A stretch of DNA of 64,000 nt from the NCBI GenBank assembly GCA_965238275.1, contig OZ250186.1, positions 1,792,001-1,856,000 on the forward strand, written 5' to 3'. The position numbers and the translations under genes are program-made. The notes under the pieces were generated by a model. That model saw only the letters and a list, made by a program, of their open reading frames with translations. It was not told where the DNA came from and made no database searches. This stretch comes from Nitrosopumilus sp. Its GTDB lineage: Archaea; Thermoproteota; Nitrososphaeria; Nitrososphaerales; Nitrosopumilaceae. Positions 29,328 to 48,182 of this stretch are shown here, piece by piece (position 1 is the first letter of the stretch; each line of letters begins with the position of its first letter).

Positions 29328-29540
29328 ATGTCTATAATGGAGGCGTACGATTTCAAGGCACGAAAAAAGGTGCCAATAAAAGACCCACAGCCATACCTCA
29401 TGAACAACGGCATGTGGGCAATCAGGGGCACTAGCTCTGAGACTGGAACAACGGTGTTTAGAATTGTCGGAAAGACAAAACCGTCACTGCAACAGTCAAG
29501 ATTCGGTGCATTCAAGAAGATCTTTACGAGCCAAAGATGA
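29328..29540 (+). CDS. Small basic DUF5679-like protein lacking the cysteines
   Basis: MEAYDFKARKKVPIKDP...MNNG.WAIRGTSSETGTTVFRI follows the DUF5679 pattern by eye. Confidence 0.65.
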   Translation: MSIMEAYDFKARKKVPIKDPQPYLMNNGMWAIRGTSSETGTTVFRIVGKTKPSLQQSRFGAFKKIFTSQR

Positions 29541-29560
29541 GAATGCGCAAAATCATGCTA

Positions 29561-31161
29561 TAGTGAAAAGCGAAAGTTCGTGCAATTTTTTGAGATCCTT
29601 TTTAAGAAAATAAATCCCAACTACAGAGACATAATCCGTAATAGGCAGTTTTGGGTCATTTCGTGCCTAGCATCTATTCCCACTTTGTGCCTAACGACTA
29701 ATTACGGATTACGTCTCAGGTATGATTGTCAGTAAAATCATCAAGATAACACAATCTCGGGAACTGTCACGCAAGATCGTGAAATGCTCCCGGGAAACAG
29801 ACATCATTTACGACATGACAATCATGATGAAACTTGCACACTCACGGATCACACAGTTTGATGTCAACAACCTGATAACAGGATGGCGCAGGGAATTCAA
29901 CCTGACCAACAGCGTCCGCATGCATGAGGCCGCCTCAAAACAGGCTTTCCAGGCGGCAGTCAAATTCCGCAAGGCAAACCGGCTCAAGCACAACAAGCGC
30001 ATCTGGCGCAAGAAGCAGATCAAGCTGGGGAAAAAGAAGACGTACAAGCACAATCGGTGGACCGAGCCGTCCAGCCTGATGAGGCGCGGCAGGAAAACAA
30101 CCAGGCTGCGCTCGCTGAATTCACGCGGAAAGCCAAAACTGCGAGACAGTGGGGCGGTATTTCTGCCCGGACTCGGGGAAGCAAGGCCACGCACGAAGGT
30201 TCCAGAAGGCAGGCTCGTGTCGTTCCAGATGATTGACGCCACAGGCAAGGTCACGCGTAAGACCAAGGATGGTGATCGCGAATTCAAACTGCATTTGCAG
30301 ATAGAAGTCCCAGACCCCGAACCCGCGACAGGCGGTGGCCGCGGATGCAAGGCAGGGCTGGATCTTGGAGTCAGGCACCTTGCGGCAGTCGCAGACGAGC
30401 ATGGGAACGAAAAACTGCACAATGTCCCCGGAGGCTGCAAGAGGCATGACGGCGACAGGATTGATCAGCTGAAATCACTTAGATCAAGATGCCAGGCAGG
30501 CTCCAGAAGATGGAAAGAGATCGGCCGCAAGGTAACGCATGAATTGAAAAAGATATCAAACAGGCAAAAACACAACGAGATCGACATTGCCAGGCGGATA
30601 ACAAAAGGACTGTCCGTATTGTTCCTGGAAGACCTGGATTTGACCAAGATGAGGCGATCCTGCGGGGCGGCTTCAAAGACGGGGTTGAACCGCGAGATGG
30701 CCTATTCCAGAATGGGCGAGTTCAGGATCCAGCTTGAATGGCAGATGAAAAAGAAAGGCGGAATTTCAAGACGCGTGGAACACGCACATACAAGCCAGAG
30801 GTGCGCTGCCTGCGGGGTAGTGGACAAGAAATCCAGGAACGGCGAATCATTTGTCTGCGTCTCATGCGGATGGTGCCACCATGCCGACAAGAACGCGGCA
30901 AAAAACATTTTGGATAATGACTGTCTCCATACGGAGGAGACTGGCGGCCAAGCCCACGGGAATCGTGGAGGCACCATTGCAGGTGTCGAGGTCGTCACAA
31001 GGCGCGAGGATCACGGATCGGATGGTTCTGGAATGAACAATTCGACAGGTCGGCTTGGACCCGGCAACGACGACAATATTGGAAGGTCTGACAGAGCGCC
31101 GGAAAGAGCATCAGGACACGCTACAGAGAGATCTGTTTGCACGAACTTTCGCTCGCCGCTA
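29561..31161 (+). mobile_element. tnpB-only element with terminal inverted repeats and flanking TA (copy 1)
   Basis: Left end TAGTGAAAAGCGAAAGTTCGTGCAA (29561-29585) versus reverse-complemented right end TAGCGGCGAGCGAAAGTTCGTGCAA (31137-31161), 21/25 identical; TA at 29559-29560 and 31162-31163. Confidence 0.8.
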
Positions 31162-31164
31162 TAG
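29722..31164 (+). CDS. tnpB: TnpB-family RNA-guided endonuclease
   Basis: RuvC-I GLDLG, RuvC-II FLEDL, zinc ribbon CAACG/CVSCG, RuvC-III HADKNAAKNI. Confidence 0.92.
   Translation: MIVSKIIKITQSRELSRKIVKCSRETDIIYDMTIMMKLAHSRITQFDVNNLITGWRREFNLTNSVRMHEAASKQAFQAAVKFRKANRLKHNKRIWRKKQIKLGKKKTYKHNRWTEPSSLMRRGRKTTRLRSLNSRGKPKLRDSGAVFLPGLGEARPRTKVPEGRLVSFQMIDATGKVTRKTKDGDREFKLHLQIEVPDPEPATGGGRGCKAGLDLGVRHLAAVADEHGNEKLHNVPGGCKRHDGDRIDQLKSLRSRCQAGSRRWKEIGRKVTHELKKISNRQKHNEIDIARRITKGLSVLFLEDLDLTKMRRSCGAASKTGLNREMAYSRMGEFRIQLEWQMKKKGGISRRVEHAHTSQRCAACGVVDKKSRNGESFVCVSCGWCHHADKNAAKNILDNDCLHTEETGGQAHGNRGGTIAGVEVVTRREDHGSDGSGMNNSTGRLGPGNDDNIGRSDRAPERASGHATERSVCTNFRSPL
30923..31161 (+). ncRNA. Putative omegaRNA scaffold overlapping the tnpB 3' end
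   Basis: Hairpins conserved with copy 2 through compensatory changes; GNRA loops; 5' boundary approximate. Confidence 0.65.
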
Positions 31165-31327
31165 TCCTTATTTTTAACCATCAGTAAGCCACATGCTCGG
31201 CCCCCCCCCCAAAGTCGGACACGGCTATTTGCAGGATTCATGCCTGACAGATGCTGTACATGCAATCACGCGTCGTGATCCGTCCGGAATTCGAAACCGT
31301 TAATTTGGCAGTAATGCAACAGAGCAC

Positions 31328-31798
31328 ATGTCATTTGAGATTGACTGGCGAAGTGATTTTTACGGAATCTCATGGGCGTACGAGAAGAGCAGGTTGGTGG
31401 TATCGACGATATTTGAGGACAAGAAGAATGCAGTGGAAGTTGCGATGGACATAGACAGCTGGAGTGACAAGTTCACGCGGATGACAATAATAGAGAGGGA
31501 CAACGGCGAATTTGCAATCTGTTGCTATCAGGACCCCCAGGTAGCAAAGGGCAAAAACCCCATAGGGCTGTTCAGGACAGGAATGATACAGAGCGGCGGA
31601 TACGAACAGGCAAAGCCCATGATTGAGGAGAGGTCCCCCCTGCTACAGATTGCATACGCAGCAGATGTCAGGGATATGAGTACATACGAGCAGATCTCCA
31701 GGCTGGTGCCCATAAGAAAGTGCAGGATAATCTCTGAAAAGGATTTGAAACGGCAGGAATACTATTACGAAAAGGGCGCGTGTGAAAAATCAGCATAG
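31328..31798 (+). CDS. Hypothetical protein
   Basis: 156-aa ORF with natural composition and an upstream TTAATTT box. Confidence 0.7.
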   Translation: MSFEIDWRSDFYGISWAYEKSRLVVSTIFEDKKNAVEVAMDIDSWSDKFTRMTIIERDNGEFAICCYQDPQVAKGKNPIGLFRTGMIQSGGYEQAKPMIEERSPLLQIAYAADVRDMSTYEQISRLVPIRKCRIISEKDLKRQEYYYEKGACEKSA

Positions 31799-46547: not shown

Positions 46548-47975
46548 TTATATAGCGGCGAGCGAAAGTTTGTGCAGACAGATTTCTCCGTAACGTCCTA
46601 GTGCCCTTTCTGGCGTTCTGTCAGATCTTCCAAAATCATCGTTGTCGGGTCCAAGCCGACTTGTCAAGCTGTCCTTTGCAGGACTGCCTGAACCGTGATC
46701 CTCGCGCCTTGTGACGACCTCGACATCTGCAATGATGCCTCCACAATCTTTGTGGGCTTGGCCGCCAGTCTCCTCCATGTGGAGACGTCCGTTAGTGAAA
46801 ATGATTTGTGCCGCGCTCTTGTCTGCATGGTGGTGCCATCCGCATGCCGTGCAGACAAATGATTCACTGTTCCTTGATTTCTTGTCCACGGTCTTGCATC
46901 TCATGCACGTCCTGCTCGTGTTCTTGTATTCCACGCGTTTTGGAATCCCGCCCTTCTTTTTCATCTGCCATTCAAGCTGGCCTCGAAACTCCTCAATCCG
47001 GGAGTATGCCATCTCGCGGTTCAGTCCGGTCTTTGATGCCTTTCCGTTGGATCGCCTCATTTTGGTCAAGTCCAGGTCTTCCAAAAACAACACGGACAGA
47101 TTCTTCGTTATCCGTCTGGCAATACCTGTCTCGTTGTGTTTCTGCCTGTCAGATATCTTTTTCAATTCGCGTTTTATCTTGCGGCCGATTTCGCTCCATT
47201 TGCGCGAACCATGCACGCATTTTGACCGGCGTAACTTTAACTGGTCAATCCTGTCACCGTCATGCCGTTTGCAACCGCTGGGAACGTTGTACAGTTTTTC
47301 GTTCCCATGCTCGTCTGCGACTGCCGCCAGGTGCCTTACTCCAAGGTCCAGTCCTGCCATCGAACCGGCCGCCTGTTCGGGGTCCGGAACCTCGATCTGC
47401 AAGTGCAGTTTGAATTCGCGATCACCGTCCCTGATCCTGCGCGTAATCTTCTCTGTGACATCAATCATCTGGAACGACACGGGCCTGCCTTCGGGGATCT
47501 TCGTGCGCGGTCTTACTTCCCCGAGTCCGGGCAGGAATACGGTGTCGTTGTCCCGCAGTTTTGGCTTTCCGCGTGAATTCAGCGAACGCAACCTCGTGAT
47601 TTTTTTGCCCCTCCTCATCAGGCTCGACGGTTCCGTCCACCTGTTGTGTTTGTACGTTTTGGTCTTGTCGAGCCTTATCTGTTTCTTGCGCCAGATACGT
47701 TTTACATGCTTTACTCGGTTTGCCTTGCGGAATTTGGCTACAGCCTGGAATGCCTGTTTTGAGGCGGCCTCATGCATGTGGACGCTGTTGGCCAGGTTGA
47801 ATTCCCCGCGCCATCCAGTTATCAGGTTGTTGATGTCAAACTGCGTGATTCTTGGATGTGCAAGTTTCATCATGATTGCCATGTCGTAAATGATGTCGGT
47901 TTCCAGGGAGCATTTCACGATCTTGCGTGACAGTTCTCGTGATTGTATAATTTTGATGCTTTTGCTGACAATCAT
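46548..47975 (-). CDS. tnpB: TnpB-family RNA-guided endonuclease, paralog of 29722-31164
   Basis: MIVSK start matches copy 1; GLDLG, FLEDL, CMRC/CTAC and HADKSAA motifs. Confidence 0.92.
   Translation of the reverse strand: MIVSKSIKIIQSRELSRKIVKCSLETDIIYDMAIMMKLAHPRITQFDINNLITGWRGEFNLANSVHMHEAASKQAFQAVAKFRKANRVKHVKRIWRKKQIRLDKTKTYKHNRWTEPSSLMRRGKKITRLRSLNSRGKPKLRDNDTVFLPGLGEVRPRTKIPEGRPVSFQMIDVTEKITRRIRDGDREFKLHLQIEVPDPEQAAGSMAGLDLGVRHLAAVADEHGNEKLYNVPSGCKRHDGDRIDQLKLRRSKCVHGSRKWSEIGRKIKRELKKISDRQKHNETGIARRITKNLSVLFLEDLDLTKMRRSNGKASKTGLNREMAYSRIEEFRGQLEWQMKKKGGIPKRVEYKNTSRTCMRCKTVDKKSRNSESFVCTACGWHHHADKSAAQIIFTNGRLHMEETGGQAHKDCGGIIADVEVVTRREDHGSGSPAKDSLTSRLGPDNDDFGRSDRTPERALGRYGEICLHKLSLAAI
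46553..46786 (-). ncRNA. Putative omegaRNA scaffold (copy 2)
   Basis: Hairpins co-vary with copy 1; GCAA and GAAA tetraloops. Confidence 0.65.
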
Positions 47976-48040
47976 GTACACAATAGAACTTGTTTTTTTA
48001 AAAAGGAGGTGCATTGATTGCAGGAACATGCTCTTCACTA
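46553..48040 (-). mobile_element. tnpB-only element with terminal inverted repeats and flanking TA (copy 2)
   Basis: Left end on the - strand TAGTGAAGAGCATGTTCCTGCAA (48040-48018); right end TAGCGGCGAGCGAAAGTTTGTGCA (from 46553); TA at 46551-46552 and 48041-48042. Confidence 0.75.
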
Positions 48041-48182
48041 TAGGAATGGGGCAATTAACTGAATCTTGCGCTTGGCATTATGCGCGTGGGTGTCGTCTGC
48101 TCCAGACAGGTCTGGAAGGGCGGCATTGGCAGATGCAGGAGAATTCATCCACGGAGCGAATCCAGAGTGCTGCCCGGTTCCC

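Follow-up and report, generated by a model that had tools for sequence, protein, structure and literature searches.

The stretch of DNA analyzed here, referred to as the window, comprises 64,000 nucleotides (nt) of a Nitrosopumilus sp. genome (contig OZ250186.1, positions 1,792,001 to 1,856,000), and features within it are numbered from its first letter. At 29561-31161 the window carries a mobile element in which tnpB is the sole gene between two inverted arms, as judged from the list of open reading frames (ORFs) and a Pfam search. The arms, each 28 nt long (29558-29585 and 31137-31164) and 86% complementary, consist from the outside inward of C/G, the dinucleotide TA and a 25-nt terminal inverted repeat (TIR). 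The two TIRs are identical at 21 of 25 positions and share a perfect 17-mer, which has three matches in the window and none in 100 window shuffles; one of the three, at 46561, comes from another copy of the element. TA stands at 29559-60 and again at 31162-63, preceded on the left by C 29558 and followed on the right by G 31164. The canonical length of these elements is ~1511 bp, and the window copy is 90 nt longer because an unrelated miniature inverted-repeat transposable element (MITE) is nested at 29627-29716. For comparison, the genome to which the window belongs (G000, hereafter the own genome) is complete as a single contig of 2,216,668 bp (99.9% complete), and the relative G017 is 99% complete. 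The features of the locus, together with the second copy, are as follows.

29558, plus strand: target-derived C that may open the target-adjacent motif of TnpB (C+TA); C in 38 of 38 insertions and in the empty sites
29559-29560, unstranded: left copy of the duplicated target TA; the empty allele and the G017 ortholog each have one TA
29561-29585, plus strand: left TIR, 25 nt, TAGTGAAAAGCGAAAGTTCGTGCAA; 15-20 of 25 positions shared with IS630 family E ends, 7-13 of 25 with other IS630 families
29586-29626, plus strand: A+T-rich left subterminal region upstream of tnpB, conserved in all copies
29627-29716, unstranded: unrelated nested 90-bp MITE, with a CAG 3-bp duplication at 29624-26 and 29717-19
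29722-31164, plus strand: tnpB, 480 amino acids (aa), from Pfam, NCBIfam and the residue alignment
30923-31163, plus strand: conserved structured RNA over the tnpB 3' end and the right repeat, from covariation in 14 sequences
31137-31161, minus strand: right TIR, 25 nt, TAGCGGCGAGCGAAAGTTCGTGCAA read inward; 21 of 25 positions shared with the right repeat of the IS630 element E1
31162-31163, unstranded: right copy of the duplicated target TA, from the empty site in public run X5 and in G017
46551-48042, minus strand: second, diverged copy of the element, with TA on both sides and an open TnpB frame of 79% aa identity

The protein encoded at 29722-31164 matches the Pfam models OrfB_IS605 (E 1.4e-11) and Cas12f1-like_TNB (E 2.7e-16), accessions PF01385 and PF07282, and it scores 117.3 bits on the NCBIfam model guided_TnpB (NF040570), whose cut-off is 100. 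The second-best NCBIfam model is IS607_TnpB (NF038280), with 91.2 bits for a cut-off of 350, and the IS200/IS605-type TnpB model NF038281 gives 60.8 bits for a cut-off of 425. The RuvC triad is formed by D214, E303 and D389, and the zinc finger by C361, C364, C379 and C382; in an alignment of 15 sequences, D214, D389 and the four cysteines are invariant and E303 is nearly so. Since the family models are passed and the catalytic and zinc-finger residues are kept, the nuclease looks active, as far as its sequence can indicate. The closest natural relatives of solved structure, ranked by sequence, are a mimivirus TnpB-like protein (E 9e-22), an entry named 'Transposase' (1.1e-21) and ISDra2 TnpB (1.6e-19), all three of which are distant. 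The tnpB frame has no stop codon of its own: it crosses the putative omega-RNA region and the right repeat and terminates in the duplicated TA and the flank, so that in the window copy the stop TAG is made of the duplicated TA and the flanking G 31164. As the stop is formed by the TA plus the flank of each site, the C-terminus varies among copies.

BLAST identified about 22 full or near-full copies in the own genome, in addition to fragments, at 81-98% identity to the window copy. Both ends were paired for 20 of these, and for a 21st at 46551-48042 of the window, which has a C at 48043 before its left TA and a 2-nt deletion in its left repeat. Every copy ends at the same TATAG..CTATA boundary, and the tnpB frame is open (at least 474 aa) in 14 of the 21. 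A further 17 elements, with the same class of repeat and TA on both sides, were found in two related Nitrosopumilus-type genomes; the 38-element set used below combines these 17 with the 21 from the own genome, all from the TA-flanked clade. TA is present on both sides in 37 of the 38, the remaining one being a diverged copy with TG..TG. Close relatives of the protein (44-97% identical) are confined to a handful of genomes, and the next level of similarity lies at 27-31%. G017 holds two TnpB subfamilies, whose aa identities with the window protein are ~55% and ~46%, and another relative genome holds one copy with 74%. Among 61 genomes drawn from the genus, the clade was found at E<=1e-30 only in the own genome and G017, while searches of metagenome contigs and of viral contigs returned only distant TnpB relatives, at most 40% identical over partial matches.

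The own genome is very rich in insertion sequences (ISs), with nested insertions and many short gene-less elements of the same end class. An IS630 family-A element lies in a 5.9-kb insert within the TnpB copy at 883619-891004, two more copies (827297 and 2149881) are broken after nt 18 of the left repeat, and a single diverged TnpB at 501-503 kb has ends too decayed for scoring. A sister TnpB clade (loci L035-L049, ~14 copies, 27-31% aa identity) is likewise solo and TIR-bounded, with another repeat, GGGAATTATATACAAAAGTAC, and an 8-bp target duplication. Because the sister clade differs in both repeat and duplication, the TnpBs of this archaeal family seem to be carried by DDE-type ends of two or more kinds.

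Sites without the element were read both in public sequencing data and in related genomes. A 3558-nt contig of run X5 represents the window locus without the element: 29558 is joined to 31162, the 1603 nt skipped have the ends TA..TA, one TA is left, and two letters of the contig are ambiguous. The locus is polymorphic between samples for the presence or absence of the element. The orthologous site in G017 reads ..CCTGC TA GCCATT.., with a single TA, and the own genome holds a single C-TA-N at the sites of the relatives' elements L031, L017 and L027. Conversely, the copy at 951-952 kb of the own genome occupies a position at which L017 has a single TA; a fragment of another element adjoins this TA, which makes it a more complex case. 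Four orthologous empty sites with one TA were counted as clear, in addition to the X5 empty allele, and the site orthologous to L026 is too rearranged in the own genome to be read. The duplication is 2 bp long, because G follows the right TA in only 15 of 38 insertions and the empty sites hold a single CTA-N; a 4-bp CTAG duplication was rejected on these same grounds. An IS605-type insertion 3' of CTATA without duplication was also rejected, since the empty sites read C-TA-N with only 2 nt between the flanks. Insertion of an A..T element between T and A, again without duplication, is less parsimonious given the TG..TG copy, in which duplication accounts for both flanks in one step.

The original prediction for this locus, made from the letters of the window, had proposed an element with tnpB as its sole gene, bounded by TIRs, flanked by TA and devoid of a transposase, with cTAg as the reconstructed empty site. 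The arms, the TIRs, the TA on both sides and the gene content all agree with this, and the predicted empty site was read directly in the X5 contig and the G017 ortholog. The span given at the time, 29559-31164, requires adjustment in that the element proper covers 29561-31161 and encloses the nested MITE. A search with both ends had been suggested; the copies found in the own genome and the two relatives all stop at the same TA. The expectation of empty sites with one TA held at the orthologous sites and in the X5 allele; two paralogous sites that read otherwise are discussed below.

A structured RNA is associated with the 3' end of the element. When 14 elements representing four subfamilies were aligned over their final 250 nt, the common structure of the last ~240 nt comprised 52 pairs, 23 of them with compensatory changes. 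In this structure 97% of the cells are paired, compared with 34-45% after a shift of the partners by 1-3 columns; the shifted versions retain 3-6 compensatory pairs, and none of 500 shuffles reaches the observed covariation score, figures that favour the structure somewhat because it was derived from the same alignment used to test it. In the last helix (helix 10), 31106-09 pairs with 31151-54 inside the right repeat, and the RNA scaffold would thereby absorb the repeat. Rfam returned no family above chance in 29400-31400. The RNA at 30923-31163 is a probable omega-RNA scaffold running into the right repeat, a reading drawn from the sequence alignment. In RNA libraries X15 and X16 the element contig has depths of 153 and 65.5, with flanks at 0 to 11, values that come from a repeat of ~20 copies and may include DNA.

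The window element encodes no DDE (DD35E-type) transposase, and its membership in the IS630 family is accordingly not full; as tnpB is the only gene inside, the element is non-autonomous and its mover has to be sought elsewhere. Pfam Y1_Tnp and Pfam Resolvase (serine TnpA) each have no match in the complete own genome and in G017, with positive controls. The own genome contains 34 DDE_3 (IS630) matches distributed over at least five IS630 families, among which family E is present as four copies, 1096-1104 bp in length. Open transposase frames are retained by two of them, E1 (354 aa; G000:C1:1873253-1874348) and E3 (337 aa; G000:C1:2123842-2124945), both with helix-turn-helix (HTH) and DDE_3 domains and with 175 and 172 bits, respectively, on the NCBIfam IS630 equivalog (cut-off 100). 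Family-E ends have the form TA-TA(C/G)TG.CG..CAAAAGT.., and the ends of the TnpB elements agree with them at 15-21 of 25 positions, compared with 7-14 of 25 for families A, B and C. Between the right repeats of E1 and of the TnpB element, 21 of 25 positions agree, which equals the left-right match of the TnpB element itself; no shuffle out of 100000 gives more than 16. Along the right end as a whole, the match is 24 of 28 (counted by eye). Family E and the TnpB element have in common the terminal TA-TAG/TAC and a central CNAAAGT block, and both tnpB and the family-E ORF cross the right repeat in the same frame, the two endings being ..FCKNF-stop and ..VCTNFRSPL-stop. E1 itself lies in a (TAG)n run, which is unbroken once the element and one TA are taken out. 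The own genome and G017, the sole holders of the TnpB clade among the 61 genomes, both carry the closest family-E transposases, at 58-63% identity to E1; any family-E transposase at E<=1e-40 is held by 8 of the 61. All 38 TA-flanked elements are solo, and the resident IS630 partners are without tnpB.

These features make the window element, with high confidence, a non-autonomous derivative of the IS630 type (Tc1/mariner, DDE), and that family E in particular moves it is more likely than not. The original prediction had pointed to an IS630 transposase gene with like TIRs, and family E, which is resident and of the same end class, answers to it; Y1 or serine TnpA genes with these ends, which would have spoken otherwise, are absent from the complete own genome and G017. 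Its further claim of mobilization in trans on DDE-type ends stands as regards the ends, with the resident family E as a supportive partner, and the movement in trans itself is still inferred.

The base next to the left TA is fixed. It is C in all 38 insertions, while the base following the right TA is distributed as G 15, C 10, A 8 and T 5 (n=38); counted outward, C is found in 38 of 38 on the left versus 15 of 38 on the right (Fisher p 1.8e-9). The left C is fixed across three TnpB subfamilies with differing repeats, and it belongs to the target, because the empty sites carry it. Among 13 transposase-bearing family-E elements from three genomes, C was found by eye at 9 of 25 ends (p 5.6e-9 vs 38 of 38), with 5 of 13 and 4 of 12 at the two ends, neither of which is fixed. 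Whether C+TA serves as the target-adjacent motif of TnpB is, in our assessment, evenly balanced. The occupied site reads ATA before the right flank and the empty site reads CTA, a one-base difference by which the nuclease could leave the element intact and still cut a donor that is empty. In Fanzors, the motif includes the 5' duplicated site, while the 3' duplicated site belongs to the scaffold (PMC13565253).

The full explanation that we consider likely combines these components. In an IS630-family IS, tnpB and its omega-RNA would occupy the place of the transposase gene. A family-E IS630 transposase made elsewhere would bind the ends, excise the element and paste it into a new TA. Transcription of the omega-RNA would continue past the right repeat and the duplicated TA, and the flanking sequence reached in this way would act as the guide. 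TnpB would recognize C+TA, made up of a single target base and the left TA, and the element would be spared, the occupied site being ATA. Finally, TnpB would cut the resealed empty donor site, and recombination with the sister copy would restore the element. A restoration-by-homing model is reportedly the subject of a preprint by Meers et al. More tentatively, and as a conjecture that we hold to be somewhat doubtful, the survival of a TnpB element borne on DDE ends may depend on its nuclease in these archaeal symbionts: only insertions with C+TA at the left flank (38 of 38) would persist, because TnpB must cut the resealed empty site and force repair from the sister copy. If true, this would be a natural, population-scale sign that RNA-guided homing pays for cut-and-paste DDE transposons too, and it would bear on why such transposons, including the eukaryotic Fanzor carriers, keep a guided nuclease.

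Several observations weigh against this explanation. The family-E elements include none whose ends are identical to those of the TnpB element, and with a best match of 21 of 25 cross-mobilization by family E is plausible but unproven. A transposase and tnpB were not found within one pair of ends, and none of 49 related loci has a family-E transposase within 4 kb; without any such shared-end copy, an origin by gene replacement is a guess. No transposition was seen. At two paralogous 'empty' sites (G000:C1:759604, 762339, 172973 and 576451) the spacing is 2 nt, as expected, but the letters are TG (noted also as CA) and AA in place of TA; as paralogs of only 72-91% identity, they are assumed to reflect divergence or targeting of the one paralog that had TA. 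Lastly, C was found by eye at 16 of 23 TnpB-less ends of the same class in the own genome (p 0.0006 vs 38 of 38), and through this enrichment the left C may partly reflect a preference of the transposase.

Four other explanations were weighed against the IS630-type reading or its parts. Most solo TnpBs belong to IS200/IS605 (IS1341-type) or IS607-type elements, and the window element could be an ordinary member of these, moved by a Y1 or serine TnpA, with TA as the crossover or target motif. The rank of IS607_TnpB as second-best NCBIfam model (91.2 bits) would fit such a member, as would the reasoning that a serine recombinase would likewise leave an identical dinucleotide at both junctions. 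This explanation is nonetheless scarcely credible in view of the lack of Y1_Tnp and Resolvase matches in the complete own genome and G017, the 25-nt inverted ends held in common with IS630 elements, empty sites without the 4-5-nt target expected under the IS605 model, and scores far under the cut-offs of the IS607 (350) and IS200 (425) TnpB models. The copies could alternatively be immobile relics spread via duplication or recombination, and those at 614929-616534 and 642577-644168, with the same nested MITE in the same place, do resemble one segmental duplication. The flanks of the other copies are, however, unrelated, each with its own TA, the window locus is empty in another sample, and 14 of 21 frames are open, all of which make relics highly improbable.

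The remaining two alternatives accept IS630-type ends and differ in the mover or in the role of TnpB. Another IS630 family, or a partner since lost, could move the element in place of family E; the 34 DDE_3 matches in at least five families offer candidates, and the best family-E TIR match, at 21 of 25, falls short of identity. Families A, B and C, however, reach only 7-14 of 25 with the TnpB ends, whereas family E has the same TA-TAG/TAC end, the CNAAAGT block and the frame through the right repeat. The polymorphism between samples and the 97-98% identity among copies, from which we argue that the mover is present now, count against a lost partner, and a mover other than family E is altogether unlikely. 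As for the left C, it could be an oriented target preference of the transposase complex, given repeats that differ at four positions, with TnpB uninvolved. The target preference of IS630 is CTAG, and the C at 16 of 23 TnpB-less ends is in keeping with such a preference. A symmetric DDE complex, on the other hand, should not fix C at one end alone, and the right end has it in 15 of 38; neither end is fixed in the 13 transposase-bearing family-E elements, C is fixed in three TnpB subfamilies with different repeats, and the Fanzor 5' duplicated site is part of the motif (PMC13565253). We regard a transposase preference as an appreciable possibility that falls short of an even chance.

Some further properties of the locus concern its upstream part and its surroundings. 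The A+T-rich region at 29586-29626 is the probable promoter region of tnpB. The nested MITE has 17-nt inverted ends and closes 5 nt before the tnpB start codon, parting the gene from this A+T-rich region; canonical copies run from 29626 straight to 29717, and contigs from three of four public runs skip the MITE. It has 13 BLAST matches genome-wide, its own copy included, each with its own 3-bp flanks, and two of the other matches sit within other TnpB copies. To the right of the element, a run of C at 31190-31210 varies in length by sample, with four extra C in the X5 contig.

Association of TnpB with DDE-type ends has been described before. In Altae-Tran et al. 2023 (PNAS, PMC10691335), TnpBs of the DDE-6 branch are tied to IS630 transposases and a separate HTH protein within symmetrical ends, all six DDE-associated TnpB groups have inverted terminal repeats, some solo TnpBs have ends nearly identical to those of transposase-bearing systems, for which mobilization in trans is suggested, and a link to Fanzors is proposed; a 2026 review repeats these points. 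A claim of novelty for TnpB on IS630-type ends is overstated, as symmetrical ends of IS630-linked TnpBs, solo copies with such ends and the parallel to Fanzors are already in PMC10691335. The literature search returned no description of this archaeal TnpB clade, which the supplementary tables of that article may list. The arrangement is thus known in kind since 2023 in other microbes, and the archaeal, always-solo lineage is an addition to it. Because the phenomenon was published in 2023, the present elements are of value as a good model system and as an extension to another lineage, and they establish no new principle: in archaea, they offer a clean, multi-copy and apparently active case from nature of TnpB with IS630-type ends, for which empty sites, candidate trans-acting transposases, an omega-RNA model and C+TA as a concrete motif prediction are at hand, which makes testable both the benefit of a guided nuclease to a cut-and-paste DDE transposon and the way in which an RNA scaffold takes up an inverted repeat and a duplicated site.

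Compared with individual systems, the elements resemble DDE-6 in that TnpB lies within symmetrical IS630-type ends with the tnpB 3' end near the transposon end, and differ in that DDE-6 has an IS630 transposase and an HTH protein beside tnpB, whereas here 38 of 38 elements are solo and the host is archaeal. With Fanzor1 and Fanzor2* of eukaryotic and viral cut-and-paste transposons, among them a non-autonomous element of an ascovirus (Yoon et al. 2023, PMC10711439), they share a nuclease as the only gene and bounds consisting of a TIR and a target site duplication (TSD). The guide RNAs of Fanzors in TIR transposons take the TIR and TSD into their 3' scaffold (PMC10711439), like the repeat-absorbing RNA described here, and in Fanzors the adjacent motif is taken to include the 5' TSD (PMC13565253), alike to the C+TA proposed above; the present protein is, in contrast, a TnpB from a prokaryote, ordinary in size, in which the RuvC triad is canonical and Fanzor-type extensions are missing. 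IS1341-type solo TnpBs (IS200/IS605) are similar in their solo tnpB, overlapping 3' omega-RNA, multiple copies and transposase from elsewhere, but they have asymmetric hairpin ends without TIR or duplication, a Y1 TnpA and a 4-5-nt motif, none of which is present here. IS630/Tc1-mariner MITEs (Stowaway-like) are equally non-autonomous, TA-flanked and multi-copy, with ends that resemble and do not match those of the partner; these are short and non-coding, whereas the elements described here have kept a functional-looking 1.4-kb gene and its RNA. To these known systems the present lineage adds IS630 partners without TnpB, boundaries that are exact, a locus polymorphic between samples, a model of the RNA and a left C that is fixed.

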